This document shows, one piece after another, positions 2,373 through 20,045 of a stretch of DNA of 24,000 nt (position 1 is the first letter of the stretch; every line of letters begins with the position of its first letter). The stretch covers positions 1,960,951 through 1,984,950 of the forward strand of contig OY782041.1 of the NCBI GenBank assembly GCA_963677595.1. The letters run 5' to 3'. The translations under genes were made by a program, and so were the position numbers. This DNA is from Spirochaetia bacterium. Its GTDB lineage: Bacteria > Spirochaetota > Spirochaetia > CAKZLE01. The notes below the pieces were generated by a model that made no database searches, was not told the origin of the DNA, and worked only from the letters and a program-made list of their open reading frames with translations.

Positions 2373-2422
2373 TGTATTATACATGAGAAATCTGTATGCA
2401 GATACATACGAAGGGGAAATGG

Positions 2423-2920
2423 ATGAAATCAATACTGTACCGCCTGAGCATCTGGATACTCCTGATGGTGATCTGGCTTCTGCTGGTCTCACCGCTGAAT
2501 ACCCAGGAGATCATCTCAGGAGCAATGATCGCCCTCCTGGCAGCCCTGATACCGCTGCCGGACAGGGACGTGTTCAGGGAACTGCTGCTGACACCGAAGA
2601 AGGCTGTCTACGCCCTCCTGTTCACCCTGGTGTTCCTCTGGGAGGTCGTGAAGTCGAACCTTGACGTCGCCCTCAGGGTCATCAAGCCGGTGATCCCGAT
2701 CAATCCCGGGATCGTGAAGGTGAGGACCTCGCTCTCATCGAGGATGGGACGTCTTGCCCTGGCGAACGCCATCACCTTGACACCCGGTACGATCACCGTC
2801 GATATCGAGGGTGAGTACCTCTATATCCACTGGATCTCCGTGGAGGCTGGGGATATAGACGAGGCGACGAAGAAGATCGTCTCTACATTCGAGAGATATC
2901 TGGAGGTGATCTTTGGCTGA
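2423..2920 (+). CDS. MrpE/MnhE-like (MbxA/MbhA-like) membrane subunit
   Basis: MnhE hallmarks are NLDVALRVIKP...INPGIVKV...ANAITLTPGTITVDI, with N-terminal TM helices. The ATG at 2423 is preceded by AAGGGGA (2411-2417). An alternative upstream ATG lies at 2396 (track ORF start). Confidence 0.85.
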   Translation: MKSILYRLSIWILLMVIWLLLVSPLNTQEIISGAMIALLAALIPLPDRDVFRELLLTPKKAVYALLFTLVFLWEVVKSNLDVALRVIKPVIPINPGIVKVRTSLSSRMGRLALANAITLTPGTITVDIEGEYLYIHWISVEAGDIDEATKKIVSTFERYLEVIFG

Positions 2921-3173
2921 TACTATCTATATGGCAGCAGGGGCGATCGCCCTGCTTGCGTTCTGCATATCGTTCTTCCGGATCATTGTCGGACCCGACC
3001 TGGCAGACCGAGTGGTCGCGCTCGACGCGATGACCATCCTGTCGCTCTCGGGGATCGTCTTCCTCACCCACCTGCTCGGGCGCATGATCTATATCGACAT
3101 AGCCCTGGTGTACGGCCTCATGAGTTTCCTCGGGGTCATCGCGGTGGCACGCTACATGGAAAGGGGGCTGTAA
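2913..3173 (+). CDS. MrpF/MnhF-like (MbxB-like) membrane subunit
   Basis: The GPDLADRVVALDAM motif and three TM helices. The TTG start at 2913 lies just downstream of GGAGGTGA (2902-2909) and overlaps the upstream stop. An alternative ATG lies at 2931. Confidence 0.8.
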   Translation: MADTIYMAAGAIALLAFCISFFRIIVGPDLADRVVALDAMTILSLSGIVFLTHLLGRMIYIDIALVYGLMSFLGVIAVARYMERGL

Positions 3174-3174
3174 G

Positions 3175-3516
3175 ATGGTACTTGAGATCATTGGGGCGAT
3201 CGTCGCCCTCTTCGGGTCCCTCTTCCTGCTGCTGGCAGCAGTCGGTATCGTCAGGATGCCCGATACCTATAACAGGATGCAGGCCGGGACCAAGGCTTCC
3301 ACCCTTGGGAGCCTGCTCTTCTTCATCGGGATCGGCCTCGGCCATCCCGGTCTCTGGGGCAAGCTCATCGTACTGAGCGCGTTCGTCCTCCTGACGAACC
3401 CGCTCTCCTCGCACGTCCTCGCACGGGCCCTGCACTATGTCGGGAAGTCCCCGATCCTGCCCGGCCATCCCAACCGTGACGACCTCGCAGAGGATCGCCT
3501 GAAGGAGGGAGTATGA
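3175..3516 (+). CDS. MrpG/MnhG-like (MbxC-like) membrane subunit
   Basis: RMPDTYNRMQAGTKASTLG matches the MnhG signature R.PD.Y.R.HA..K..TLG. The ATG lies 1 nt after the upstream stop, with AAGGGGG upstream. Confidence 0.85.
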   Translation: MVLEIIGAIVALFGSLFLLLAAVGIVRMPDTYNRMQAGTKASTLGSLLFFIGIGLGHPGLWGKLIVLSAFVLLTNPLSSHVLARALHYVGKSPILPGHPNRDDLAEDRLKEGV

Positions 3517-3779
3517 TCGTTCTCTATATCATATTGGGGGTGCTGATGCTCATCGCCGCAGCTGCCGCCATCCAGATGAAACATATGACCTCAGCGATCA
3601 TCGCTGCCGGGGTCGTCTCCCTGGTGGGAAGCCTGCTCTTCCTGCTCGCGGGTGCACCTGATGTCGCCATGACAGAGGCCGCAATCGGTTCCGCACTGAC
3701 GACAGTCATCTTCCTCTTCGCCTGGTCACGTATTTCCGACCATGCCAAGGGTGATGACGATGAGGAGGGTAGGTCATGA
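3513..3779 (+). CDS. DUF4040 / MrpA-C-terminal-like small membrane subunit (MbxD/MbhD-like)
   Basis: GAPDVAMTEAAIGSALTTVIFL matches the APDVALTEAAVG signature. There are three TM helices and an ATGA start/stop overlap at 3513-3516. Confidence 0.8.
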   Translation: MIVLYIILGVLMLIAAAAAIQMKHMTSAIIAAGVVSLVGSLLFLLAGAPDVAMTEAAIGSALTTVIFLFAWSRISDHAKGDDDEEGRS

Positions 3780-4474
3780 TCAAACGACTGCTTATCATCG
3801 CCGTGCTCATCGTATTGGGGATCGTGCTCTCCCCGATGCTCTGGAATATAACGGATGCGACTGAACTCGGTTCGGTATCGCAGAAGTATGTAACTGATGG
3901 GGTGGAAGACCTCGGGGCTGCGAACCTCGTCACCTCCGTCGTGGTCAGCTACCGTGGTCTCGATACGCTCGGCGAGGTCGCCGTGCTCTTCGTCGCGACT
4001 GCCGGGGTTGCCATGCTGCTTGGTGCAGGGAAGAAGGAGGAGTCTATCGTCCTCCCCAATGAGCGGCGCAGCGGATCGGAGCTCCTGGGCACCGGTTCAG
4101 CGCTGCTCTTCCCGATCCTCCTGCTCTTCGGGGTCTATATCTTCCTCCATGGTCACCTGACCCCTGGCGGAGGATTCCAGGGAGGCGTCGTCATCGCCTC
4201 CTCCATCGTGCTGCTGCTCTTCGAGAAGAGCGACAGGAAACTGAACCATGCCCTCCTGCAGTGGATCGAGGCCCTCTCCGGGGCTGCCTATGCAGCGGTC
4301 GGCCTGCTCGGGCTCTGGCTCGCGGCAGGGTTCCTGGATCCCAGGTTCCTCCCTACAGGGGAGTTCGGCATGGTGCTGAGCGCCGGGGCGATCCCCGTGA
4401 TCTACTGCCTGATCGGGATCAAGGTCGGCTCGGAGCTGACCGGGGTCGTCGATTCCCTGAGGAGGAACGCATGA
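3776..4474 (+). CDS. MnhB/MrpB-domain membrane subunit (MbxF / MbhE-F-like)
   Basis: GAANLVTSVVVSYRGLDTLGEVAVLF matches the MnhB signature N.VT.IL.D.RG.DTLGE. It is polytopic, with an ATGA overlap at 3776-3779. Confidence 0.85.
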   Translation: MIKRLLIIAVLIVLGIVLSPMLWNITDATELGSVSQKYVTDGVEDLGAANLVTSVVVSYRGLDTLGEVAVLFVATAGVAMLLGAGKKEESIVLPNERRSGSELLGTGSALLFPILLLFGVYIFLHGHLTPGGGFQGGVVIASSIVLLLFEKSDRKLNHALLQWIEALSGAAYAAVGLLGLWLAAGFLDPRFLPTGEFGMVLSAGAIPVIYCLIGIKVGSELTGVVDSLRRNA

Positions 4475-4830
4475 TTACACAGATCCTCGTGATCCTCGGA
4501 GGCCTACTGATCTTAGTCGGGCTCTGGGGCATCCTAACTAGAAAACACCTGGTGAAGATGATCATCGGGTTCTCCGTCCTCGATACCGGTGTCCACCTGA
4601 TCATGGTAGGACTCGGGTACATCAAGGGTGGGACCGCACCGATCATTGACAGCGAGCTCCCGGCGGGAACGCTCGCCGGGAAGGTCGTGGACCCGGTCCC
4701 CTCAGCCCTGGTCCTGACAGCGATCGTCATCGGCGTGGCTGTCACCGCCCTGATGCTCAGCTATGCTGTCCGGTTATACAAGACCTATAAGACTACGTCG
4801 ATCGATGAGATAAAGGAGTTGAAATGGTAA
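4471..4830 (+). CDS. MrpC/MnhC / NuoK-like membrane subunit (MbxG-like)
   Basis: DPVPSALVLTAIVIGVAVTA matches the MnhC hallmark DPLPQALVLTAIVI. The real start is the ATG at 4471 (aa 71 of track ORF 4261..4830), preceded by GAGGAGGAA, with an ATGA overlap with the upstream gene. Confidence 0.85.
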   Translation: MITQILVILGGLLILVGLWGILTRKHLVKMIIGFSVLDTGVHLIMVGLGYIKGGTAPIIDSELPAGTLAGKVVDPVPSALVLTAIVIGVAVTALMLSYAVRLYKTYKTTSIDEIKELKW

Positions 4831-7800
4831 GCCCACTCTATATATTCGGTCTGGGACTGGGGATCGCCTTCCTGCTCCCGCTGTTCGAGAAGCTCTCGAA
4901 AGAGGCCCCGAAGTACATCACCCTGCTGCTTCTTGCCCTGTTCACGATCATCCCGGTCTCATGGATCGCCCAGATCCTTCCCTCCGGGATCATGAGCTCC
5001 CCGGTATCGGTCGGGACGATCGGCTTCGCGCCCCCGTTTGCCATAAGTCTGCAGATAGGCTTTGCAGAAGCCGTCACCCTGGCGGCAGTCAATGCCGCGG
5101 CGCTGCTGAGCGGCCTCTACCATACGGTCAGGAATGACGAGAACTGGAAGGGGAAGCACATCGTGCTCTTCCTCACCCTCATCGTCGGCGTGAACGGGCT
5201 CATCCTCACCAGGGACCTCTTCAACCTCTTCGTCTTCCTCGAGATCACCTCGATCTCGATGTATGCACTCATCGCGACGAATGCCCAGAAGCATGCCTAT
5301 GAGGCAGGGTTCAAGTACCTGATCGCAGGTTCACTCGCCTCCGCGAGCTACCTCATCGGGGTGATCTTCCTCTACCGGTATACCGGCACCCTCTATATCG
5401 ATGAGATCGCGGCCATGGATATCGCTTCCATGGCGGCAGGGAACCCGGGTCTCGTCATCGCCCTCTCGTTGCTGATGCTCGCGATGCTCGTGGAGCTCAA
5501 ACCGTTCCCCGCGAACGGCTGGGCGATTGATGCCTATGAGGCTTCCGACCCTGCCGTATCGGCCATGATCAGTGCCGTCGGTGCCACCGGCGTGCTCTTC
5601 TCCTTCCATAAGCTCCTTGAACTGTTCACCCCACAGATGGCCGGCGTCGCTGCCGCCTGCGGGATGCTCACCTTCATCTTCTCTCAGCTCATCGGCTTGA
5701 GGCAGGAACGGGTCAGGAGGATGCTCGGCTATTCATCAGTCGGGCAGATCGCCCTGGCAGTGACCGTCCTCTCGATCGGCAGGGTCCATCCGGATCTTGC
5801 TGTCCAGATGCAGCTTGCGGCTGCACTCCTGATCGGGACCCATATATTCAGCAAGGCCGGGCTCTTCTGGCTTGCCGATATCCAGGACCGGGACGGGTTC
5901 ACCTCCTTCAGGAAGAGCCCGCTCTTCATCGCTGTCATCGGTATCCTGGTTTCAGCGTTGGCAGGACTGCCTCCCTTCCCCTCTTTCTGGGCGAAGTGGA
6001 GCCTCCTCTCGGCACTTACCGGTAAGGGATACCTCTTCTATATGACACTCATCCTCCTAGGGTCTGTCTGTGAGGCAGGCTACCTCTTCAGGTGGTTCAC
6101 CCGCGGCCTGAAGGCTGCTGCCGACCCAGGCGATATCCACGCAGAACAGGTCCCGGAGGATGTCCCTGTCGCAGGACCCCAGACCGGGGTGATCAGCTCG
6201 ACGAGGGCCAGGGCCGCAGTCGGGGAGACTGCAGCCAGGAACGTGAAGACTGCAGTCCAGGAAGCAGAGGATGAGAAGAAAACACTTCACCCCTCTGTGC
6301 TCATGCCGCTGGTCTCCGCGCTGGTCGTCACTGCCGGCGGGCTGCTCTTCGGCTATAGGGCCCTTGAAGGTTCGGCCGAGGTCCTCCTGCTGCTGCCGGC
6401 AGCCGTGCTGCTGGTCGGCCTGCTGCTTGACCTGGTACGTATCCCGCTCAAGCTCCACCTCCTCGCTGTCCTGGCAGGGATCGCATACTATGCATACCAG
6501 GTCCTGCCGCAGCTGCAGGGGCTCAGGATGGTCTTCGGGGTCATCTTCCTCATCGGTTCTGCCGTACAGATGATCATCCTCTTCAACCGGAAAGGCGTCC
6601 AGTTTGGTCTGGTACCACTCATGACCGCCATGGTCTTCTCCCTCGGGAACCTCCTGCTCGCCTCGACGAGGTTGGGATTCTTCCTCTCCTGGGAACTCAT
6701 GACTGTGACCTCCTTCCTGCTGATCCTCCGTGGGAAATTATCATCAGGGGCCGGTTTCCGGTACCTGCTCTTCTCACTCGGGGGTGCCTACAGCATCCTG
6801 GCAGGGCTCATGCTCTTCCCGGGATTCGACTCGCTCCTGGGCGGGGGCGGCGTAAGCGGTGCAGTACCGCTGGCCGCAGTCATCCTGCTGGCCGTCGGGT
6901 TCCTCGTGAAGATGGGGGCTGCCGGGTTCCATATTTGGCTGCCTTCAGCCTATGCAGAGGCTGAGGATGAGACCTCGGCACTGCTCTCCTCGGTATTGAG
7001 CAAGGCATCGTTGTTCATGCTCTTCCTGACTGCCGCACTCTACCTGCAGCCGGTCTCACCGGTATCGTCAGTGCCGGTATCGACCCTGCTCGGCTGGGTC
7101 GGGACCATCACCCTGATCGCAGGTTCGTTCTTCGCCCTCTTCCAGGAGGATATAAAGTACACGCTTGCCTACTCCTCCATGGGACAGGTCGGCTACATGC
7201 TCCTAGGCTTCTCCCTCATGACTCACCTGGGCTGGACGGCGAGCCTCTACCTGGCAGTGACTCACCTCCTCTTCAAGGGGATGCTCTTCATCGCGGTCGC
7301 CGGGGTCATCCACCGGACACGTACCCGGATGATGTACCAGATGGGAGGGCTGATCAAGCGGATGCCGGTCAGCTTCCTCACCGTACTCATCGGGATCATC
7401 GCCCTCTCGGGCGTTCCCCCGCTTACCGGGTTCGGCGGAAAATGGCTGATCTATACGGCCCTGATCGAGAAGGGCTGGTACCTGCAGGCGGCGGTCGCGA
7501 TGTTCGCCTCCGGGATCGCCTTCCTCTACCTCTTCAGGCTCATACATGTCATCTTCCTCGGGCAGCTCAAGGACGAGCACCGGGAGGTGAAAGAGGCGCC
7601 GATCTGGTACCTCATACCGCAGGTCATCGGCATGGTCGCCATCATGGCGTTCTCCATGTTCCCGAACCTGCTGCTGCAGCCGCTGCAGGCTGCCGTGGCC
7701 CCGTTCTTCCCGGCATCGATCAGCTGGGACGGCTACACGGTCATTTCGACGCTGGGCTACTGGAACGGGAATGCCGTCATGTACGTGACCTTCGGGGTGT

Positions 7801-8126
7801 TCCTCATCCCGCTCGCATGGCTGCTGCTGGTACGCAGGAAGCATACCCGGCTGGTGAGCCAATTCAATATCGTGTATGCGGCAGAGCGGCCTGACAAGCC
7901 GGAGACGACCCATTTCGGGTACAACTTCTTCGCCCATTACCATGAGGCGCTCGGAAGCTTCCTCACCCCCTGGGCCACACGGTTCTGGGGCGGGGTGGAA
8001 TCGATCGTCCATGTCGCCGGTTCGGCCGTGCGGAGGATCTACTCCGGCAACGGGCAGACCTATGCCTTCTATATCCTGGCCTACTGTACAGTAGTCCTGA
8101 TCATCATTCGAGGAGGGGTACTGTAG
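4824..8126 (+). CDS. Fused double antiporter-like subunit (MrpD/NuoN-like module + linker + MrpA/NuoL-like module; MbxH-MbxH' fusion), 1100 aa
   Basis: Module 1 (aa 1-~428) has FVFLEITSISMYALI (TM5 Glu), LVELKPFPANGWAIDAYEASDPAVSA (TM7 Lys), LGYSSVGQIA and HIFSKAGLFW. A hydrophilic linker spans aa ~429-489 (nt ~6108-6290). Module 2 (aa ~490-1100) has FLSWELMTVTSFLLI, FLVKMGAAGFHIWLPSAYAEAEDETSALLSS, LAYSSMGQVGYM and HLLFKGMLFIAVAG. Confidence 0.85.
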   Translation: MVSPLYIFGLGLGIAFLLPLFEKLSKEAPKYITLLLLALFTIIPVSWIAQILPSGIMSSPVSVGTIGFAPPFAISLQIGFAEAVTLAAVNAAALLSGLYHTVRNDENWKGKHIVLFLTLIVGVNGLILTRDLFNLFVFLEITSISMYALIATNAQKHAYEAGFKYLIAGSLASASYLIGVIFLYRYTGTLYIDEIAAMDIASMAAGNPGLVIALSLLMLAMLVELKPFPANGWAIDAYEASDPAVSAMISAVGATGVLFSFHKLLELFTPQMAGVAAACGMLTFIFSQLIGLRQERVRRMLGYSSVGQIALAVTVLSIGRVHPDLAVQMQLAAALLIGTHIFSKAGLFWLADIQDRDGFTSFRKSPLFIAVIGILVSALAGLPPFPSFWAKWSLLSALTGKGYLFYMTLILLGSVCEAGYLFRWFTRGLKAAADPGDIHAEQVPEDVPVAGPQTGVISSTRARAAVGETAARNVKTAVQEAEDEKKTLHPSVLMPLVSALVVTAGGLLFGYRALEGSAEVLLLLPAAVLLVGLLLDLVRIPLKLHLLAVLAGIAYYAYQVLPQLQGLRMVFGVIFLIGSAVQMIILFNRKGVQFGLVPLMTAMVFSLGNLLLASTRLGFFLSWELMTVTSFLLILRGKLSSGAGFRYLLFSLGGAYSILAGLMLFPGFDSLLGGGGVSGAVPLAAVILLAVGFLVKMGAAGFHIWLPSAYAEAEDETSALLSSVLSKASLFMLFLTAALYLQPVSPVSSVPVSTLLGWVGTITLIAGSFFALFQEDIKYTLAYSSMGQVGYMLLGFSLMTHLGWTASLYLAVTHLLFKGMLFIAVAGVIHRTRTRMMYQMGGLIKRMPVSFLTVLIGIIALSGVPPLTGFGGKWLIYTALIEKGWYLQAAVAMFASGIAFLYLFRLIHVIFLGQLKDEHREVKEAPIWYLIPQVIGMVAIMAFSMFPNLLLQPLQAAVAPFFPASISWDGYTVISTLGYWNGNAVMYVTFGVFLIPLAWLLLVRRKHTRLVSQFNIVYAAERPDKPETTHFGYNFFAHYHEALGSFLTPWATRFWGGVESIVHVAGSAVRRIYSGNGQTYAFYILAYCTVVLIIIRGGVL

Positions 8127-9038
8127 ATGAGAGAGATAGCGATCAAGGCAGGGTATACCCTGATCTCCCTGTTCGTCATCACCAATTACGGCCTGCTCCT
8201 CATGGGGACGATGGCCAGGGTGCGCGCGAAGGTACAGGGTCGTATAGGACAGCCGGTGTGGCAGCCCTATATCGACATCATCAAGAACAATACGCGGAGG
8301 ACTGCGGTCTTCCACGGGGTCATGTTCTACCTCGGGCCGGTCTTCAGGCTGGCAGGGGGACTCGGGACCTACCTGTTCATCCCGGCAGTCTACGGCTCGC
8401 TGGTCTTCGCGAACTTCTCGTTCTCCGGGGACCTCCTGCTCGTCATGTACTTCATCTTCTTCGGGCAGCTGGGAATGGCCTTGGGTGCCGGGCAGAGCGG
8501 GCACCCCTACAGCCCGATCGGGGTAGCGAGAGGCCTGGCCCAGATGACAGCCTTCGAGGTACCGTTCGCGCTGGCGGTCATATCGATCGCGGCACAGTAC
8601 CAGACGCTCTCCATCACCGAGATCGTCGCCGTACAGCAGGGAGGCATCCTCAACTGGATAGCCTTCACCAACCCGCTGGCAATGGTGGCAGGGATGATCT
8701 CCTTCCTCGGGATGACGATGGGGAATCCGTTCAGTGTCGTCATCGCACCACAGGAGATACCGATCGGGCCGCCTACCGAGATGAACGCCGGCTTCCTCGG
8801 GATGCTTCAGACGAACCGTGCGATCTTCCAGGGCGCCAAGCTGGTGCTCTTCATGAACCTCTTCTTCGGAGGGGCGACGAACATACCGGTGATGGTCGTG
8901 AAGACCTTCCTGATCTACTTCTATACCGTGTTCGTCGGGGCTTCCTTCCCGAGGTTCAGGGTCGACCAGTCGATCAAGTTCTTCTTAGGGATACCGACAC
9001 TGATCGGTATCGCGGCAGTCGTGCTGCAGATGATCTAG
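8127..9038 (+). CDS. NuoH/ND1-like membrane subunit (MbxM/MbhM, HycD, CooK family)
   Basis: RVRAKVQGRIGQPVWQPYIDIIK matches the ER+..+Q.R.GP...QP.AD..K signature. About 8 TM helices. The ATG abuts the upstream TAG, with GGAGGGG at 8112-8118. Confidence 0.85.
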   Translation: MREIAIKAGYTLISLFVITNYGLLLMGTMARVRAKVQGRIGQPVWQPYIDIIKNNTRRTAVFHGVMFYLGPVFRLAGGLGTYLFIPAVYGSLVFANFSFSGDLLLVMYFIFFGQLGMALGAGQSGHPYSPIGVARGLAQMTAFEVPFALAVISIAAQYQTLSITEIVAVQQGGILNWIAFTNPLAMVAGMISFLGMTMGNPFSVVIAPQEIPIGPPTEMNAGFLGMLQTNRAIFQGAKLVLFMNLFFGGATNIPVMVVKTFLIYFYTVFVGASFPRFRVDQSIKFFLGIPTLIGIAAVVLQMI

Positions 9039-9052
9039 TCAGAGGGGTTAAG

Positions 9053-9709
9053 ATGAAAGATACAGATGATAAACAGGACCAGCTCGAGGAGATTGCCAAG
9101 GAGCTGAGACTGGCAAACAGCGGGCTCCCGGAGGATGAGAGAGCGTACTTCTGCGATGCGAGGCCCGAGAAGATCGATCCCTACCGGGGGATCCTCGAGA
9201 AGTTCGCCAACTGGGCGAGATCGGAATCATTGTGGATCCTCGGGTTCGGCACCGGTTGCGGGGCCATCGAGCTCAGGCCGCTGATGACCGCCCGCTATGA
9301 CATGTACCGATACGGGATCCAGCCGAGGCCGACACCGCGCCAGGCCGGGGTCTTCGTGATCGGCGGCTATGCCTCGGTGAAGACGATGAAGCGGATCGTG
9401 CGCAGCTATGAGCAGATGCAGGGACCGAAGTTCGTCCTTGGGCTCGGCAGCTGCACGATCAACGGCGGTATGTACTGGGACAGTTACAACACCGTCAACC
9501 GGCTCGACCACTATATCCCGGTGGATGTCTATATCGCCGGATGCATGCCGAGGCCTGAGGCCCTGCTCGCAGGTTTCCTCAAGCTCAAGAAGATGATCAA
9601 GTCCGGGCAGTGCGACGGCATGAACACGTATGCCGAGAATTTCGACTGGTACAAGCAGAACCAGAAACAGATCATCAAGCATTGGGAAATGCCTGATTAC
9701 AACTGGTAG
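9053..9709 (+). CDS. NuoB / hydrogenase-small-subunit-like Fe-S subunit (MbxJ-like) with only 3 of the 4 canonical cluster cysteines evident
   Basis: The real start is the ATG at 9053 (in frame with track ORF 8258..9709), preceded by GAGGGG (9042-9047). SLWILGFGTGCGAIE aligns to NuoB SLW...GLACCAIE. Also GLGSCTINGGMY (cf. GACA..GG) and VDVYIAGCMPRPEALL (cf. PGCPPRPEAL). Confidence 0.85.
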   Translation: MKDTDDKQDQLEEIAKELRLANSGLPEDERAYFCDARPEKIDPYRGILEKFANWARSESLWILGFGTGCGAIELRPLMTARYDMYRYGIQPRPTPRQAGVFVIGGYASVKTMKRIVRSYEQMQGPKFVLGLGSCTINGGMYWDSYNTVNRLDHYIPVDVYIAGCMPRPEALLAGFLKLKKMIKSGQCDGMNTYAENFDWYKQNQKQIIKHWEMPDYNW

Positions 9710-9722
9710 GAGGAGTGTGAGT

Positions 9723-10271
9723 ATGAGAGAACGATTGAGGGAAGTCTCAGGAAGATTTCCCGTGACCATACGCGAAGAACTCGCTCCTGACCGGGATGAC
9801 CTGCTCTTCGTCGAGACCGGGACCGAATATGCGGTCTCCTTCATCACCTGGCTGCAGGAACTCGAGGGGTATACCCACCTCGTCTTCTTCACGGCAGTCG
9901 ATTACATCGAGGAGGGGTACTTCCAGCTGACCTACATGCTGCAGAACTACGGGAAGAAGCATGACCTCTGCGTCCTCGTCCGCCTCGAGCGGGAGAAACC
10001 CGTCATGGAGTCGATCCACCACCTCTGGCCCCATGCTGCGACTTACCAGCAGGAGCTCTATGAGATGTACGGGATCGAGTTCCCCGGTTCACCGAGGATG
10101 TATGAGGACTTCGTCCTCGAGGGCTGGGACGACCTTCCCCCGATGCGACGGGATTTCGACACGAAAGCCTATTCAGAGGAGACCTATTTCCCGAGACCGG
10201 GAAGGAAGACACACGATACTGCTGCCTACATGAAGGAGCAGCTCTATCCCGGGGAGGCCGAGACATGGTAG
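9723..10271 (+). CDS. NuoC / 30-kDa-subunit-like protein (MbxK-like)
   Basis: The ATG at 9723 (aa 32 of track ORF 9630..10271) is preceded by GGAGGAG (9709-9715). HLVFFTAVDY...FQLTYMLQN...SIHHLWPHAATYQQELYEMYGIEFPGSP matches the NuoC pattern (.vD...f.vvY.L...S....A.W.ERE.YDM.GI.F.GHP). Confidence 0.8.
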   Translation: MRERLREVSGRFPVTIREELAPDRDDLLFVETGTEYAVSFITWLQELEGYTHLVFFTAVDYIEEGYFQLTYMLQNYGKKHDLCVLVRLEREKPVMESIHHLWPHAATYQQELYEMYGIEFPGSPRMYEDFVLEGWDDLPPMRRDFDTKAYSEETYFPRPGRKTHDTAAYMKEQLYPGEAETW

Positions 10272-11440
10272 GAGCCAAGCAGAAAGAGAGCGGGAAGTTC
10301 CCGCCTGTCGTTGACGGAAAGAGTCAGTATGACCTCTATTCAGGGAAGTACCTCAAGGTATGGCAGGGCCCGCAGCACCCCGGGATCACGGGGAACATGT
10401 CCCTCGAGCTCGTGACCTGCGGTGACCGTATCGTCGAGGCGAGGACCCATGTCGGGTACCTCCACCGGGGATTCGAGAAGCTCATGGAGCGACGGAAGTA
10501 TATCCAGTGCTTCCCCCTGGTCTGCAGGATCTGCGTGCCGGAGCCCGACTTCAACGAGTACCTCTTCGCAGAGTGTACCGAGGAGCTCGCGGGCATAGAG
10601 GTGCCCGAACGGGCGAAGTGGCTGCGTGCCATGAACCTCGAGATGGCACGGCTCACCTCGTTCCTCATGTGGCTCGGCGGACAGGCCGGGGCCTTCGGCA
10701 TGGGAACGCTCGGGCAGTGGACGGTGACGATGCGTGACTACATGCTCGACCTCTTCGAGGAGCTTACCGGTGGACGTATCTACCATATGTACATCATCCC
10801 CGGCGGGGTCCGCTCAGATGTGCCTGACGGCTATTTCGGCCGGGTCGAGGCTACCCTGCAGCAGATCGAGAAGGTCCTGAAGGACATCGAACTTGCGCTC
10901 TTCCATAACTCCGTCTTCAAGAAGCGGGCCAAAGGTCTCGGGTATATAGACCCGTCTATGGTGGAGCTCTACGGCATCACCGGCCCGAACGCCCGGGGCA
11001 GCGGTATCGCGAGGGATATCAGGAAGGATGTCGGCTACCTCGTCTATGACGAACTCGACTTCGAGCCGGTCACGGCGACTGACGGCGATGCCTATGCCAG
11101 GACCTGGGTCCGGTACCAGGAGATCCACCAGTCGATCGACCTGATCAGGCAGATGATGGCAAAGATGCCCGAAGGGCAGTTCTTCCAGAAGCTCCCCAAC
11201 GTCCTCCATTGGAAGATCCCGGCAGGCCAGACCTACCGTCGTGCGGAATGCACAAGAGGGGAGTACGGCTTCTACATGGTCTCCGACGGGTCGGAGTACC
11301 CGAGGAGGGTCGCCGTCAGGGGACCGAGCTACACCCATGCCGTCACGCTGATGGAACGGCTGGCAGTCGGGACGAACATCGCGGATACAGCAGGGTTGAT
11401 GGTATCGCTCCACACCTATCCGCCTGAGATAGAGAGGTAG
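10265..11440 (+). CDS. NuoD / group-4 hydrogenase large-subunit homologue lacking the [NiFe]-binding cysteine pairs (MbxL/Ehr-like)
   Basis: GPQHPGITGNM, GYLHRGFEKLMERRKY and IEVPERAKWLRAMNLEMARL are NuoD/large-subunit signatures. The L1 position reads VCRICVPEP (expected R.CG.C). The C-terminus reads SLHTYPPEIER (expected DPC..C..R/H). Confidence 0.85.
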   Translation: MVGAKQKESGKFPPVVDGKSQYDLYSGKYLKVWQGPQHPGITGNMSLELVTCGDRIVEARTHVGYLHRGFEKLMERRKYIQCFPLVCRICVPEPDFNEYLFAECTEELAGIEVPERAKWLRAMNLEMARLTSFLMWLGGQAGAFGMGTLGQWTVTMRDYMLDLFEELTGGRIYHMYIIPGGVRSDVPDGYFGRVEATLQQIEKVLKDIELALFHNSVFKKRAKGLGYIDPSMVELYGITGPNARGSGIARDIRKDVGYLVYDELDFEPVTATDGDAYARTWVRYQEIHQSIDLIRQMMAKMPEGQFFQKLPNVLHWKIPAGQTYRRAECTRGEYGFYMVSDGSEYPRRVAVRGPSYTHAVTLMERLAVGTNIADTAGLMVSLHTYPPEIER

Positions 11441-11443
11441 TAT

Positions 11444-13228
11444 ATGAGTCTGAAAGATATAGTTGCACCGTTCTCCGTCTGGAAGCGGGTACTGGAAAAA
11501 CCATACACAACGAAGAAGCCGATCGATGAGCGGCCGGGGGCAGCCCGGTACCGCGGGTTCCATATAAACGACGTGGACAAGTGCATCGGCTGCGGGACCT
11601 GTGAGGAGATCTGCCAGAATGCGGCGATCGACCTGGTCCCCGTATCGAAGACCAAGCACGGGGACTCCGGCCTGCGGCCGAAGATCGACTACGGCAGGTG
11701 CTGCTGGTGCGCGCTCTGCGTCGATATCTGCCCCACGGGATCGCTCGGGATGAGCAATGAGTACATCTGGGTCGAGAACGACCCGGAGGCCTACCGGTTC
11801 ATCCCCGGGCACGACGAGAAGAGCTGGAACGGCAGCGAACTCGGTTACCGCCGCGCTGAAGGCTATGACCTGCTCGAGGGCGAGCGGGTCGCCATGCCGA
11901 TGCTCCCCTTCGAGGAGAGCCAGAAGAGCTTCATCGAGATGGTCCTCGGATACTCGAAGGAACAGGCTCAGCGTGAGGCTGACCGGTGTATCGCCTGCGG
12001 CATCTGCGTCGCCACCTGCCCGGCTCACATGAACGTGCCTGACTACATCAAGGCCATACGTGACGATGACATGGAAGAGGGACTGCGGATCGTTTACCAG
12101 GCGAACCCGCTGCCTGCCTCCTGCGGGCGTGTCTGCTCCCATGCATGTGAGTATGTCTGTGCCGTGAAGCATAAGGGTGAGGCGCTCTCCATCCGCTGGC
12201 TCAAGCGGTACATCATCGACCAGATCTACAAGGACGACTATACGAAGATCCTTGACGAGATGCCGGAGGAGAACGGCAGGAAGGTCGCGATCATCGGATC
12301 GGGACCGGGGGGCTTGAGTGCCGCCTACTACCTGAGGCTCCTCGGGTACAGTGTGACGGTCTACGACGCGAACGAGAAAGCCGGTGGTATGCTTCGCTAC
12401 GGAATACCCGAGTACCGGCTTCCCTACGACCAGGTCGACAAGGATATCGTGTATCTCACGACGCTGGGCGTGAAGATCGAGCAGAATGTACGTATCGGGG
12501 TGGACAAACCCATGAAGGAGATCTATGAGCAGAACGACGCGGTCTTCTTCTCCACAGGATTGACTGACCCCTACGGTCTCGGTATTGCCGGTGAGGACCT
12601 CAAGGGTGTCCTCTCCGGTCTGGGCATGCTCGATGACGTGACGAACGGCAAGACCCCGGACATCGGGGGATCGGTGGTGGTCATCGGCGGTGGTAACGTC
12701 GCCATGGATGCTGCCAGGACGAGCCGGCGGTACAAGGCTGACGTGACCATCCTCTACCGGAGGCGCGAGGTCGATATGCCGGCCGATGTCGAGGAGATCG
12801 AGGAGTCCCAGGGAGAGGGCTGTACCCTGATCACCCAGGCGATCCCGCTGAGGATCGAGAAGGGGGACAAGACGAGGTTGAAGCTCTATTGGGGCAAGGC
12901 AGAGATGGTAGCCGACAGCAAGGGTGGCAGGCCGAGGCCGGTGCTCATCGAGGGTTCGGAAGAGCTCATCGAATGTGACACCATCATACCCGCGATCGGG
13001 CAGGCGGCAGACTACTCGTTCCTCCCTGATGATATTGCCAAGTCGGTCACCTTCACCCGGGGCTATGTCGATGTCAACGAGTTCTACCAGACGGGTGACA
13101 AGAAGATATTCGCCGGAGGTGATATCGCAAACCCGAAGCGGGATGCCATCAGCGCCATCGCCAACGGCCACTCCGCAGCGAAGGGGATCGATATCTACCT
13201 GAACGATTTCGCTGAAGGGGAAGAATAG
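11444..13228 (+). CDS. Fusion protein: NuoI/MbxN-like 2x[4Fe-4S] ferredoxin domain + GltD/NfnB/SudA-like Fe-S, FAD, NAD(P)H oxidoreductase domain (594 aa)
   Basis: The N-terminus has KPYTTKKP...RYRGFH, C47-x2-C-x2-C-x3-C57 and C86-x2-C-x2-C-x3-C96-P. The C-terminal module has C182-x2-C-x2-C-x3-C192-P, C227-x3-C231-x3-C235-x3-C239 within NPLPASCGRVCSHACEYVC, VAIIGSGPGGLSAAYYL, GGMLRYGIPEYRLP, VVVIGGGNVAMDAARTSRR, ILYRRR and IFAGGD. Confidence 0.85.
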   Translation: MSLKDIVAPFSVWKRVLEKPYTTKKPIDERPGAARYRGFHINDVDKCIGCGTCEEICQNAAIDLVPVSKTKHGDSGLRPKIDYGRCCWCALCVDICPTGSLGMSNEYIWVENDPEAYRFIPGHDEKSWNGSELGYRRAEGYDLLEGERVAMPMLPFEESQKSFIEMVLGYSKEQAQREADRCIACGICVATCPAHMNVPDYIKAIRDDDMEEGLRIVYQANPLPASCGRVCSHACEYVCAVKHKGEALSIRWLKRYIIDQIYKDDYTKILDEMPEENGRKVAIIGSGPGGLSAAYYLRLLGYSVTVYDANEKAGGMLRYGIPEYRLPYDQVDKDIVYLTTLGVKIEQNVRIGVDKPMKEIYEQNDAVFFSTGLTDPYGLGIAGEDLKGVLSGLGMLDDVTNGKTPDIGGSVVVIGGGNVAMDAARTSRRYKADVTILYRRREVDMPADVEEIEESQGEGCTLITQAIPLRIEKGDKTRLKLYWGKAEMVADSKGGRPRPVLIEGSEELIECDTIIPAIGQAADYSFLPDDIAKSVTFTRGYVDVNEFYQTGDKKIFAGGDIANPKRDAISAIANGHSAAKGIDIYLNDFAEGEE

Positions 13229-13298: not shown

Positions 13299-13646
13299 AT
13301 GGATTTGTTTGAGATGCACTGTGAGGAGACTATACTGGAGTTGCGGGAACGGTTCTCAAGTTCCCGGTGTGAGCTGGTGGAGCGCATGATGTCGATCATG
13401 TCCAACCCCATCCGGTTTCACATCCTCTGTGCGCTCAACCATGAACCGTTCACCGTTTCCGAGCTGGTGGACCTCACCGACTCGCAGCCTTCGAACGTAT
13501 CACAGCAGCTGAAGATGATGACCCTCGCCGGGTACCTGGACAAGGAACGGCGGGGGAAACAGATCTACTACCGGCTCATCGAGGATAAGGTGTCACGCAT
13601 CATCAGCCTGCTCGAGGAGCTCTTCCCCTTTGACCAGCCAGAATAG
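13299..13646 (+). CDS. ArsR/SmtB-family winged-HTH transcriptional regulator
   Basis: PIRFHILCALNHEPFTVSELVDLTDSQPSNVSQQLKMMTLAGYLDKERRGKQIYYRL is the canonical ArsR HTH-wing core. There is a ~35-aa N-terminal extension. Cysteines are at aa 8, 24 and 44, with no CxxC or CVC metal motif. Confidence 0.85.
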   Translation: MDLFEMHCEETILELRERFSSSRCELVERMMSIMSNPIRFHILCALNHEPFTVSELVDLTDSQPSNVSQQLKMMTLAGYLDKERRGKQIYYRLIEDKVSRIISLLEELFPFDQPE

Positions 13647-13863: not shown

Positions 13864-14673
13864 ATGGCAAAGACCTATCATGAGAAAGAGATCGATGAGA
13901 GATTGAAACTGCAGGTGCTCGATCAGATACCTACGCCTGTCATCGCGATCAATATGGAGTATGAGCTCATCTATGTGAATGATGCCGCCACGAAGCTGCG
14001 CGGCAGATCCAAGGAGAACCTCCTGGGGTATCACTGCTATGAGATGTTCGGGACACCTCACTGTAATACCCCGAGCTGCTGCATGCGCAAAGCCATGGAG
14101 ACCGGGGAGATGTTCTCCGCACGGAACGAGATCCCCCTTGATGAGGGTGGATCCATCCCCATCATGTATTATACCGTACCTCTCAAGGATGATGATGGGA
14201 ATGTCATCGGCGGGCTAGAGTATATCGTCGATATCACGGACCAGGTCTCGTATGAGGCACGCATCAAGGAACAGAGCAAACAGATGTCCAAGATGTCGAC
14301 TCCGACGATCAAGCTGTGGGAAGGGGTGCTGGTGCTGCCCGTGATCGGGGTGGTCGACTCTCTCAGAGCTCAGCTCATGATGGAGAGCATGCTCGACAAG
14401 ATCGTTGAGACTTCGGCAAAAGTCATCCTCCTCGACATCCAGGGGGTGGCTGCCGTTGATACTGCCATCGCGAACCACCTGATCAAGATCACGAAAGCCA
14501 CGAAGCTGATGGGCTGTGAATGCATCCTGTCCGGCATTTCTCCGGCGGTGGCCCAGACGATCATCCAGCTCGGTATCGACATGATAGACTCTATCAAGAC
14601 CATGTCCACGCTGAGCGATGGACTGGCCGAAGCCTTCAAGATCCTGAACATGCGGGTCGAGAAGATAGACTGA
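13864..14673 (+). CDS. RsbR-like stressosome scaffold/sensor: N-terminal Cys-rich PAS domain + C-terminal STAS domain
   Basis: The STAS core STPTIKLWEGVLVLPVIGVVDS...VILLDIQGVAAVDTAIANHLIK...LSGISPAVAQTIIQLGID aligns with B. subtilis RsbRA (..DITGVPVVDT.., ..IRPEIAQTIV..), including both phospho-Thr positions (T200, T232). The N-terminus is PAS-like (IPTPVIAINMEYELIYVNDAA...LLG). RBS GGGGGAGG lies before the ATG. Confidence 0.8.
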   Translation: MAKTYHEKEIDERLKLQVLDQIPTPVIAINMEYELIYVNDAATKLRGRSKENLLGYHCYEMFGTPHCNTPSCCMRKAMETGEMFSARNEIPLDEGGSIPIMYYTVPLKDDDGNVIGGLEYIVDITDQVSYEARIKEQSKQMSKMSTPTIKLWEGVLVLPVIGVVDSLRAQLMMESMLDKIVETSAKVILLDIQGVAAVDTAIANHLIKITKATKLMGCECILSGISPAVAQTIIQLGIDMIDSIKTMSTLSDGLAEAFKILNMRVEKID

Positions 14674-14683
14674 GCAGTTGTCT

Positions 14684-15067
14684 ATGGGGATGGTGGGAGG
14701 TTCGCTCAGGTCATCGATCACAGAGATCAATAATAATCTGATCATCACTCTTGCCGCTGAGATGGATGATGAGGATCTTGCGTCCTTCAGCGAATCGGTG
14801 ACGTTATTCAGCCATGGTCGTAAGCTCAATGGGGCTGTCATAGATTTCTCTATGGTGCAGGTACTGGACAGCTATACGCTGGAGGTCCTGCTGTCGTTGT
14901 CGAAGCATATCACGCTGCTCGGAGCAGAGGTCGTCTGGGTCGGGTTGAAGCCAGGAGTGGTCATCGGGCTGATAGACCTGAACATCGATCTTGACCAACT
15001 CAAGTTCAGGACTGCACTGAACCTTGACAGGGGGCTGGTGCTGCTTCAAAAGGGGCAGAATTCTTGA
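14684..15067 (+). CDS. RsbS-like single-domain STAS protein (stressosome antagonist)
   Basis: A small STAS protein: NLIITLAAEMDDEDL...GAVIDFSMVQVLDSYTLEVLL, with the conserved phosphorylatable Ser in the LDS context (S63, nt 14870-14872). The track ORF starts at TTG 14678; ATG codons lie at 14684 and 14690. Confidence 0.75.
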   Translation: MGMVGGSLRSSITEINNNLIITLAAEMDDEDLASFSESVTLFSHGRKLNGAVIDFSMVQVLDSYTLEVLLSLSKHITLLGAEVVWVGLKPGVVIGLIDLNIDLDQLKFRTALNLDRGLVLLQKGQNS

Positions 15068-15069
15068 CT

Positions 15070-15549
15070 ATGGCTGTGATGCAGGGAGCCCGTATGAGAG
15101 TGGAACAGGATCGGGCAGGTTTGATAGTACTCGAGACCTGCAGGGTGGATATAACGCATCCCTCCGACACGGGGCACGTGATCCCCCTCTGCAGGCTGAT
15201 GGCCAGGAAGGCGGGCTTTTCTGAGCGAGATGAGTTCCTCCTTGCCACGGTCGCATCAGAGCTGACGACGAACATCGTCAGGTATGCCGGCAAAGGGGAA
15301 CTGAACATCAGGATCCTCAGGAATCCCGCCACACGCCTGATAGGGCTCGAACTCTATGCAGAGGATCATGGTCCGGGCATCGAGAATGTGGAACTTGCCA
15401 TGACGGATAACTACTCGACAACGAGGAACAGCATCGGCTCAGGGCTGCCGGGGGTGAAGCGGATCATGGATGAGTTCTCGCTTGAGACAGCTGTCGGGGA
15501 GGGTGTCAGGATCAGGGCGGTGAAGTGGGGCAGACATGCAGAGGGTTGA
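15070..15549 (+). CDS. RsbT-like serine protein kinase (GHKL/HATPase_c, anti-sigma-factor-kinase type)
   Basis: N-box ELTTNIVRYAGKG, G1 EDHGPGI and G2 GSGLPGVKR, at ~160 aa as for RsbT/SpoIIAB-type kinases. The start is ambiguous: TTG at 15064 overlaps the RsbS stop, or ATG at 15070. Confidence 0.8.
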   Translation: MAVMQGARMRVEQDRAGLIVLETCRVDITHPSDTGHVIPLCRLMARKAGFSERDEFLLATVASELTTNIVRYAGKGELNIRILRNPATRLIGLELYAEDHGPGIENVELAMTDNYSTTRNSIGSGLPGVKRIMDEFSLETAVGEGVRIRAVKWGRHAEG

Positions 15550-16189
15550 GTACGGTACCGCAGTCCAGCCGTTGATCGGGGGGATCGAAGACAGCGGAGA
15601 CATCGCTGTGGTCAGGGAGGATACGGGCTCTCTCTATTTTGCCCTGGTTGATGTGCTCGGCCATGGGAGTGAGGCAGGGGAGGTCGCTGCGCAAGCCAGC
15701 CAGTTCCTGGGGTGTCACTGCGACGAGAGTCTGGTTGACCAGCTGAACGGGCTGCATGAGCACCTGAACGGGACAAGGGGTGCTGTTGCTGCGCTGTGCA
15801 GGTTGAATGTCGAAGACGGGACGCTGCAGCTGGCGGGTATAGGGAATATTGCCGTGCGGGTCATCGGTAGAGATTCATTTCAATTCGTACTTCGAGACGG
15901 GATCATCGGATACGGCCGGATCAAAGCCCTGCTCCAGGAGCGAACGATCTCACCGGGAGAATATATCGTCCTCCATTCAGACGGGATACGTTCCTTCCTC
16001 CGGGCAGAGAACTGTTTCGCTGCGATCAGGGGAAGTGCACATACCGTTGCTGACAATATCCTCAAGGAGTGTGCCTCTGGTGATGATGATGCTTCCTGTA
16101 TTGTAGTGAGATATACGGGAGCAGATCCTATGGCCTCTTCATCCTATGTGCCGTTTACCGGCAGATTGTCCGGGAGGTCAGGTTCATGA
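15536..16189 (+). CDS. RsbX-like PP2C/SpoIIE-family phosphatase
   Basis: SGDIAVV...ALVDVLGHGSEAG, TRGAVAA, GIGNIA, VLHSDGI and DDASCIVV parallel RsbX (GD..., DGLGSGS.A, RGATA, GN, HTDG, DD). It overlaps the RsbT-like 3' end by 14 nt. Confidence 0.8.
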   Translation: MQRVEYGTAVQPLIGGIEDSGDIAVVREDTGSLYFALVDVLGHGSEAGEVAAQASQFLGCHCDESLVDQLNGLHEHLNGTRGAVAALCRLNVEDGTLQLAGIGNIAVRVIGRDSFQFVLRDGIIGYGRIKALLQERTISPGEYIVLHSDGIRSFLRAENCFAAIRGSAHTVADNILKECASGDDDASCIVVRYTGADPMASSSYVPFTGRLSGRSGS

Positions 16190-18936: not shown

Positions 18937-20045
18937 AGAAGATTTCAGACTGCCTGGTATTGATCGTGGATGACACGGAACTGAATGTGAGGATCCTGGT
19001 AGAGGCCCTCGGTGATGATTATGAGCTCGCAGTCGCCATGGACGGGGACATGGCCCTGGAGTTGCTGGAGGAGACGATCCCCGATATCGTCCTGCTCGAT
19101 ATCATGATGCCGAACATCAGCGGCCTCGAGGTCTGCGAGAAGATGAAGCAGAACCCTGCCACACAGGATATTCCTGTCATCTTCCTCTCGGCCATGACCG
19201 ATATCGACAGCAAGTCGAAGGGGTTCGAGCTTGGCGCGGTCGATTTCGTCGAGAAGCCGTTCGACATCAGGGAGGTCAAGGTAAGGGTGAAGACCCATCT
19301 CTCACTTGCGATCGCGAAGGCAGAACTTGCCCAGCAGAACGAGATCCTCAACCAGAAGGTGGCCGAACGGACAAAGGAGATCAAGCTCATCCAGGATGTG
19401 ACGCTTGAGACCCTTGCCGGTCTCGCGGAGTCCAGGGATCCCGATACCGGGCGGCACATCGCCCGTACCAGTACCTACGTGAAGATGCTGGCTGAAAAGC
19501 TGATGGACCACCCGATGTATGAAGGTGTCCTCACCCCTGAGAAGGTGTACAGTTTTTATGAGTCTGCACCCCTCCACGATATCGGGAAGGTGGGGATCCC
19601 GGATGCGATCCTACTCAAGCCCGGCAGGCTCACGGATGAGGAACGGGAGGAGATGAAGAACCATACCTACATCGGCTACAAGACCCTCAAGAGGCATATC
19701 AACAAACTCGGTGCCTACTCGTTCTTCACGAATGCGATGGATTTTGCCCTCTACCACCATGAGAAATGGGACGGCAGCGGGTATCCCCAGGGACTGAAAG
19801 GGGAGGATATTCCACTGGCCGGCAGACTCATGGCCTTGGCTGATGTCTATGATGCCCTGGTGAGCAAGCGGGTCTACAAGCCGTCGTTCCCCCACTCGAA
19901 GGCGGTACGGATCATCGAGGAGGATAGCGGTACACACTTCGATCCTGAACTGGTCGAGGTCTTCAAGTCGATCCACGAGGAGATCCGTGCTTTCGCGATC
20001 GAGAATGCAGATTTCGATGAGGAGCGGGAGTCCCTTCGATTGTAA
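18933..20045 (+). CDS. Response regulator with REC + HD-GYP domain (RpfG-type phosphohydrolase)
   Basis: REC LVLIVDDTELN...DIVLLDIMMPNISG...EKP (D56). The HD-GYP domain has RHIARTS, PLHDIGKVGIPDAILLKPGRLT, EMKNHTYIGY, HHEKWDGSGYPQGL (GYP at nt 19779-19787) and LADVYDAL. ATGA overlap with the kinase stop. Confidence 0.9.
   Translation: MKKISDCLVLIVDDTELNVRILVEALGDDYELAVAMDGDMALELLEETIPDIVLLDIMMPNISGLEVCEKMKQNPATQDIPVIFLSAMTDIDSKSKGFELGAVDFVEKPFDIREVKVRVKTHLSLAIAKAELAQQNEILNQKVAERTKEIKLIQDVTLETLAGLAESRDPDTGRHIARTSTYVKMLAEKLMDHPMYEGVLTPEKVYSFYESAPLHDIGKVGIPDAILLKPGRLTDEEREEMKNHTYIGYKTLKRHINKLGAYSFFTNAMDFALYHHEKWDGSGYPQGLKGEDIPLAGRLMALADVYDALVSKRVYKPSFPHSKAVRIIEEDSGTHFDPELVEVFKSIHEEIRAFAIENADFDEERESLRL

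Follow-up and report, generated by a model that had tools for sequence, protein, structure and literature searches.

A Probable MBS/Mbx-type Respiratory Complex of a Spirochaete Whose J Subunit Offers Three Cysteines to Its Proximal Iron-Sulfur Cluster

Gene Content of the Locus and of the Host Genome

The window (the whole 24,000-nucleotide stretch of DNA that was analyzed) comes from the single-contig, 4.3-Mb genome of a Spirochaetia bacterium and carries an operon of 12 co-directional genes at 2396-13228, whose order, from Pfam assignments on all ORFs, is that of the Pyrococcus mbx/mbs operon (Table 1). Mrp-like small subunits, two antiporter-like subunits (fused here) and the gene order M-J-K-L-N, all of them marks of this family, are present. 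The fusion of H and H' is seen also in Celeribacter ethanolicus (locus L003, 1046 amino acids), and separate genes are found in loci L004-L006 and L011. The J subunit is the only member of the NuoB family encoded in the genome, and the homologues closest to it belong to Spirochaetales, Salinispira, Marispirochaeta, and Spirochaeta isovalerica. Also encoded are Rnf, five [FeFe]-hydrogenase-like genes, and pyruvate:ferredoxin oxidoreductase, from which we take the host to be a fermentative anaerobe.

On the 5' side of the operon, the window contains the C-terminal two-thirds of an enzyme of the tryptophanase/tyrosine phenol-lyase family (3-1013), truncated by the window edge, and an ORF of 397 codons (1085-2278) that gave no Pfam or NCBIfam match. 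Directly 3' of the operon, at 13299-13646, lies an ArsR-family regulator whose best solved relatives are BigR and a second ArsR-family regulator, which we take to be SqrR, both of these being presumably persulfide sensors. The first sensing Cys of BigR is matched by Cys44 of the encoded protein, the C-terminal one has no counterpart, and the N terminus bears two additional cysteines, C8 and C24. As a sign of sulfur regulation this neighbor is weak, given that one of the two sensing cysteines aligns and that its synteny with the operon is limited to five close spirochaete relatives. Further downstream, 13864-20045 encodes a stressosome-like module (PAS-STAS, STAS, RsbT-like kinase, and PP2C phosphatase), behind which lie a hybrid histidine kinase and a response regulator carrying a domain of the HD-GYP type.

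Table 1. Operon features and residues of interest, numbered from the first nucleotide of the window
Feature	Position	Strand	Evidence or remark
Mrp-type membrane module: MnhE, MrpF, MnhG, MbhD, MbhE/MnhB, NuoK-like, fused H-H'	2396..8126	+	Pfam, NCBIfam
Fused H-H' antiporter-like protein, 1100 aa	4824..8126	+	Pfam, NCBIfam
M subunit, NuoH-like membrane anchor	8127..9038	+	Pfam NADHdh
J subunit (MbsJ/NuoB-like, 218 aa), with proximal Fe-S cluster site	9053..9709	+	Pfam Oxidored_q6 (20-kDa); best PDB match 6u8y_J
Cys34 of J, in N-terminal extension of ~46 residues	9152..9154	+	Cys in 108/121 close homologues and 94/113 Gly66-type loci
Gly66 of J, at MbsJ C25 (first Cys of hydrogenase-type C-x-x-C)	9248..9250	+	HMMER alignment; Gly 113, Cys 58 of 171
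Cys69 of J, probable cluster ligand 1 (MbsJ C28; first Cys of NuoB tandem CC)	9257..9259	+	Alignments; 171/171 loci
Gly70 of J, at second Cys of NuoB CC pair	9260..9262	+	Gly in 171/171 MBS-like loci; all four Gly codons
Cys134 of J, probable cluster ligand 2 (MbsJ C93), in GSCTINGG	9452..9454	+	Alignment and family tallies
Cys164 of J, probable cluster ligand 3 (MbsJ C123), followed by Met165	9542..9547	+	Alignment and family tallies
K subunit, NuoC-like	9723..10271	+	Pfam Complex1_30kDa; ORF open from 9630, likely start ATG at 9723
L subunit (MbsL/NuoD-like, 391 aa), partner of J at catalytic chamber	10265..11440	+	Pfam Complex1_49kDa; 6u8y_L E=3e-98
C87-R88-I89-C90 of L	10523..10534	+	C90 at MbsL C85 (NiFe L1 vestige); C87 extra; R88 at Yarrowia NUCM R141
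Tyr385 of L, at MbsL C385 (NiFe L2 vestige)	11417..11419	+	Alignment; in Gly66 clade Tyr 61, Cys 36
N subunit, 594 aa: NuoI-like 2x[4Fe-4S] plus GltD/NfnB-like 2x[4Fe-4S]-FAD-NAD(P)H module	11444..13228	+	Pfam, NCBIfam

The Proximal Cluster Site of J

The J gene begins at an ATG at 9053, with a GAGGGG Shine-Dalgarno sequence 7 nucleotides 5' of the start. Its translation contains YFCDA (C34), F-G66-T-G-C69-G70-A-I-E, GSCTINGG (C134), and AGCMPRPE (C164), and the cysteines on offer to the proximal [4Fe-4S] site are C69, C134, and C164 only. A sequence-only reading of this DNA had already picked out the G-T-G-C69-G-A-I-E stretch, with C69 at nucleotides 9257-9259, the two further ligand cysteines, and C34 in an N-terminal extension, all of which the translation of 9053-9709 bears out.

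The best match of J in the PDB by sequence is 6u8y_J, which is MbsJ of Pyrococcus furiosus MBS (E=2.4e-67, 57% identity over the core), followed by subunits of NDH-1/complex I at ~1e-38 to 1e-30 and by a much weaker match to the hydrogenase subunit MbhJ (6cfw_J, E=1e-23). An AlphaFold2 model of J (mean pLDDT 74.7) likewise has 6u8y_J as its closest fold (TM 0.80), although this monomer model has low confidence in just those loops that would hold the cluster (residues 69-74 and 134-142). In the HMMER alignments, the tandem C-C of NuoB/NdhK falls on C69-G70, and the C-x-x-C of MbsJ spans G66..C69; F-C25-T-G-C28-G-G-I-E of MbsJ is placed over the corresponding residues of J, and C93 and C123 over C134 and C164. 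That a Gly stands in place of one ligand, as had been proposed, thus holds in two senses. In alignment with NuoB, the missing ligand is the second Cys, which is Gly70 here as in every MBS-like protein, and in alignment with hydrogenases and MbsJ, it is the first Cys of the C-x-x-C motif, which is Gly66 here, a replacement specific to a bacterial clade that we refer to as the Gly66 clade.

Conservation and Phylogeny of the Three-cysteine Site

Among 121 close homologues of J (at least 71% identity), G66, T67, G68, C69, G70, C134, and C164 are invariant. The sequence-only reading had held that a normal CC or CxxC motif in the close homologues would point to a sequencing error, but none of the 121 has one, and all of them have both G66 and G70. 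Sequencing error or a pseudogene is ruled out by this recurrence of the motif, also found in 113 species-level loci, and by a gene that is intact to its conserved C terminus.

For a wider view of the family, 171 MBS-like loci from different GTDB species were fetched from genome contigs and tallied. A profile-based scan of contigs yielded 11 useful loci of 80, most of the rest being ordinary NuoB, and was followed by two single-protein scans. C69, Gly70, C134, C164, and M165 are present in all 171 loci, and position 66 is occupied by Gly in 113 of them and by Cys in the other 58. The Gly70 column, whose conservation had been suggested as a check, therefore separates the two families cleanly, since 107 of 107 NuoB representatives have Cys at position 70; all of these also have Pro after the last Cys. 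At the level of 50%-identity representatives there are three motif classes, F-G-T-G-C-G (the type of J described here), [FY]-C-T-G-C-G (archaeal MBS and other bacteria), and G-L-A-C-C (true NuoB). Both C-G classes always occur with GCMPRPE, a signature of the MBS family whose counterpart in NuoB is GCPPRPE, and the NuoB class always has GCPP. The non-Cys residues T67, S133, N137, and M165, which flank the ligands, are likewise specific to the MBS family. An N2-type NuoB that has simply lost one ligand is ruled out, because these signatures (T67, G68, G70, M165, and others) and the tree group J with MbsJ. A metagenome fragment of 112 amino acids (P0149) resembles J of the Gly66 clade (64% identity, with the N-terminal extension) and reads F-G-T-G-C-C-S-I-E; its NuoB-like tandem Cys makes it a candidate for a rare MBS-like protein of the four-Cys kind.

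In a tree of J plus L rooted on a Thermococci sequence, all 97 Gly66 tips fall in one clade (support 0.93) with zero Cys66 tips inside it. A tree of J that includes 89 NuoB representatives places the Gly66 clade within the MBS-like proteins and apart from NuoB. Hence the Gly66 that this clade has in common with NuoB was not inherited from a NuoB-like ancestor, and Gly66 as a link to complex I is ruled out by its nesting within Cys66 MBS-like proteins. At G66 and G70, all four Gly codons are in use among 114 loci, each from a different species, with zero amino acid change, and in ~60% of them a single G-to-T step (GGY to TGY) would give Cys, a pattern of purifying selection that indicates, at the level of codons, that Gly is favored, or Cys disfavored, at each of the two positions. 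Tallies across the clade gave no further invariant Cys in J or L beside C69, C134, and C164.

The Gly66 clade spans more than 100 species of Spirochaetota, Cloacimonadota, Fermentibacterota, Bacteroidota, Marinimicrobia, and some Proteobacteria. Gly66-type operons occur in C. ethanolicus (Alphaproteobacteria; L003) and in Halomonas, Thiohalospira, and Methylococcales MAGs (L126, L148, and L158), and the identity of their J proteins to the spirochaete J (64-76%) points to lateral transfer between phyla. In L126 the L subunit, which may be degraded, shows an aberrant alignment around the C87-C90 motif. Two Gly66-type operons from different subclades coexist in each of several MAGs, some of them from Fermentibacterota (Sabulitectum) and others unclassified (L106/L227, L111/L216, L118/L223, L117/L235, and L120/L214). 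One copy has Tyr or Cys at L385 and a J ~70% identical to that of the spirochaete, and the other has T-T-C at L383-385 and a J ~58-60% identical, a pairing of paralogues that suggests functional divergence.

Seen against the whole family, the three-Cys site is by these alignments a conserved family trait, not peculiar to the spirochaete gene, and it is essentially known from the Pyrococcus MBS. What is new in the sequence comparison is that most bacterial members have lost the vestigial fourth Cys, and that they form one ancient, widely transferred clade. Our literature search found nothing specific on the Gly66 form, or on Mbx/MBS complexes of spirochaetes or the other phyla of the clade.

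The L and N Subunits

The L subunit carries the motif V-C87-R-I-C90-V-P-E93-P, in which C90 occupies the former NiFe L1 site and C87 is extra, as the sequence-only reading had it; C90 corresponds to C85 of MbsL, and C87 lies over a Leu of MbsL. Of the four NiFe cysteines L keeps only C90, and its C terminus (...SLHTYPPEIER) is Cys-free. Within the Gly66 clade C90 is Cys in 65 of 97 loci and otherwise Ala, Thr, or Ser. Aligned with Yarrowia NUCM, H95 is replaced by T42, Y144 by V91, and H226 by Y173, and R141 is retained as R88. We take H95 and Y144 to be quinone-site residues and H226 to be the His next to cluster N2, the roles of these residues and of R141 being assumed from the general background on complex I. 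L thus lacks both the quinone-binding His and Tyr of complex I and a complete NiFe site, as expected of a member of the MBS family. Y173 (10781-10783) is an invariant Tyr in 148 of 148 MBS-like L subunits of both clades.

The N subunit departs from the family pattern of a simple, two-cluster ferredoxin-like protein that takes its electrons from ferredoxin. It combines a NuoI-like domain with Fer4_20 and a GltD-like Pyr_redox_2 domain, and in its sequence all four Cys motifs are complete and the two motifs for dinucleotide binding are present. The GltD-like module argues for NAD(P)H or NAD(P)+ as a partner. The fusion is present in 137 of the 146 loci whose flanks cover the N gene (92/96 of the Gly66 type and 45/50 of the Cys66 type). 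A tie between Gly66 and the GltD fusion is ruled out, the fusion being common to both types of J.

Comparison with Known Systems

In MBS, the membrane-bound complex of sulfur-reductase type from P. furiosus, the proximal [4Fe-4S] cluster is held by C28, C93, and C123 of MbsJ only, and C25 is too distant to ligate because its loop lacks three residues relative to that of MBH (PMC7684303). One iron has non-cysteinyl coordination and is the proposed site of polysulfide reduction; oxidation by ferricyanide gives a [3Fe-4S] cluster with ~98% loss of activity, which Fe2+ restores, and the C25A and MbsL C85A/C385A variants keep wild-type dimethyltrisulfide reductase activity (PMC7684303). The sequence-only reading, which attributed sulfane-sulfur reduction in MBS to a non-canonical proximal cluster, is therefore accurate on this point (PMC7684303). 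Ferredoxin-dependent reduction of polysulfide or dimethyltrisulfide via this unique iron has been established for P. furiosus only (PMC7684303).

The spirochaete J resembles this enzyme in its 57% core identity, in having C69, C134, and C164 in register with C28, C93, and C123, in the Gly after the first ligand, in GCMPRPE and GSC(T/P)INGG, and in the same operon order, and the L subunits are alike in lacking the NiFe site and the quinone residues. It differs in that MbsJ has the non-ligating C25 where the spirochaete protein has Gly66, and in that MbsJ is without the C34-bearing extension of ~46 residues. The spirochaete L has the extra C87 and lacks C385, its H and H' are fused, an NAD(P)H-FAD module is joined to its N, and the host is a mesophilic bacterium.

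The mbx-like operons of Thermotoga and proteobacteria, with a gltD-type flavoprotein at the NuoI position (PMC4758237), have the same overall organization and the same GltD-like NAD(P)H module as the spirochaete operon (PMC4758237, PMC9431562). Unlike the spirochaete complex, the Thermotogae type keeps Cys66 in J (C-T-G-C-G) and has Pro at 87 and Cys at 385 of L. Complex I (NuoB/Nqo6/PSST, cluster N2) is alike in fold, in the place of the subunit in the complex, in three of the four N2 ligands, and in Gly at position 66. In contrast, NuoB has the tandem cysteines of G-L-A-C-C-A-I-E and GCPPRPE, neither of which is found in the spirochaete J with its C-G and GCMPRPE; complex I also has the quinone-binding His and Tyr that the spirochaete L lacks, and the families separate in the tree. 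Group 4 [NiFe]-hydrogenases (MbhJ, EchC, and HycG) have common ancestry with J and the same position of the proximal cluster, but both cysteines of their longer C-x-x-C loop ligate, and the large subunit has four NiFe cysteines, whereas in the spirochaete proteins the first of the C-x-x-C pair is Gly66 and one NiFe Cys of four remains.

A Proposed Site-differentiated Cluster and Its Alternatives

Given these likenesses, our preferred reading, to which we assign a probability of about 0.72, is that J belongs to a bacterial MBS/Mbx-type, Mrp-linked respiratory complex and carries a three-Cys, site-differentiated [4Fe-4S] cluster whose open iron is the terminal reaction site. C69, C134, and C164 would hold the cluster as in P. 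furiosus MBS, and because only three cysteines hold it, one iron would be without a Cys ligand and would face the J-L-M chamber. This open iron would be the most likely site for binding and reduction of the terminal substrate, and homology to the Pyrococcus enzyme suggests polysulfide or another sulfane-sulfur compound in that role. Electrons would pass through the four [4Fe-4S] clusters of N, coming from NAD(P)H through the fused FAD domain and/or from ferredoxin, and the fused H-H' protein and the Mrp-like subunits would link the reduction to the translocation of ions. In the bacterial clade Gly66 has taken the place of the vestigial, non-ligating C25 of archaeal MbsJ, and the three-Cys state is thus fixed in the sequence. 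Homology to MbsJ supports the earlier suggestion that the proximal cluster is not fully ligated by Cys and leaves one iron open.

The donor side fits less well with a plain MBS. The NAD(P)H-FAD module of N, which archaeal MbsN does not have, counts against that reading. NAD(P)H, at ~-320 mV, and polysulfide, at ~-260 mV, are separated by a difference that would yield ~10-12 kJ per 2 electrons. This lies far below the 42 kJ given in a review for ferredoxin-driven MBS with two pump modules and counts against transfer from NAD(P)H to polysulfide. Rnf, already present in the genome, and a mesophilic, fermentative host without known sulfur respiration also tell against a sulfur reductase. The Gly66 clade could instead be a functionally distinct NAD(P)H-linked enzyme, with an open iron re-tuned for another substrate, donor, or coupling stoichiometry. 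We regard this as unlikely; the features that could have brought about such re-tuning are the conserved C87 and the invariant T42 of L and, in J, the N-terminal extension with its Cys.

Under the older Mbx model, the complex would not be a sulfur reductase at all but would exchange electrons between ferredoxin and NAD(P)+ at N, the three-Cys cluster serving only for energy coupling or having another substrate. The complete GltD-type module on N, the small energy yield from NAD(P)H to polysulfide, and the spread of the clade among mesophiles not known for sulfur respiration are all consistent with such exchange, and Fd:NAD(P)+ activity has been proposed for the gltD-containing mbx-like operons (PMC4758237). 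We nevertheless consider it decidedly unlikely, because a place where nothing reacts would hardly be expected to show the strong purifying selection seen in the J-L-M chamber and at the three-Cys site, and because the presence of Rnf in the genome tells against exchange of this kind as well. In addition, the Fd:NADP model has been superseded by direct sulfane reduction in P. furiosus MBS (PMC7684303), and the mbx operon of T. maritima is induced by S0 (PMC9431562).

The sequence-only reading had looked to C87 or C90 of L, or to C34 of J, for a residue able to reach the fourth iron, and a cluster fully ligated by L-C87 or J-C34 would act as an electron relay only. In the Gly66 clade C87 is Cys in 91 of 97 loci (94%), compared with 18 of 51 of the Cys66 type, so a role near the cluster is possible; the extension bearing C34 is almost confined to this clade, and C34 itself (94/113 loci) lies in a region modeled at pLDDT ~73-81. 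Yet both residues are replaceable, C34 by S, A, L, E, G, or R in ~17% of Gly66-type loci and C87 by S, N, V, or I in the few others. Such variability, which C90 shows as well, makes all three cysteines poor choices for a fourth ligand that every cluster must have, and for C34 and C87 the tallies make that role unlikely. C87 is, moreover, present in Cys66-type operons of spirochaetes and WOR-3, the sister group of the Gly66 clade included, and is thus older than the loss of Cys66. MbsL C85, three residues from the position of C87, lies ~12 Å from the MBS cluster and is dispensable (PMC7684303). On these grounds we hold a fully ligated relay cluster to be very unlikely. To a native [3Fe-4S] cluster we give hardly any credence, for although there are only three cysteines, with Gly at both alternative ligand positions, and MBS readily passes to [3Fe-4S] on oxidation, the homologous MBS site is [4Fe-4S] by cryo-EM and inactive in the 3Fe form (PMC7684303), and J and MbsJ are indistinguishable in sequence around the three ligands.

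Implications for the Family

The idea of sulfane-sulfur reduction at a bare iron rests on one archaeal enzyme. A large bacterial clade with no other Cys nearby in J, in which the three-Cys arrangement is invariant, adds independent support from natural variation that three cysteines suffice, and its Gly66 accords with the C25A mutant of P. furiosus. Hosts in the clade are mesophilic and partly cultivable (Salinispira, S. isovalerica, Prolixibacter, and C. ethanolicus) and would allow tests both of the mechanism and of the fused NAD(P)H module. Gly66-type J proteins are currently annotated as 'NADH-quinone oxidoreductase subunit B', a name that is misleading because they lack N2-type ligation and their partner lacks the quinone site. 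If the Gly66 clade should prove to be the functionally distinct enzyme considered above, it would be a widespread, uncharacterized ion-pumping reductase of mesophilic anaerobes.
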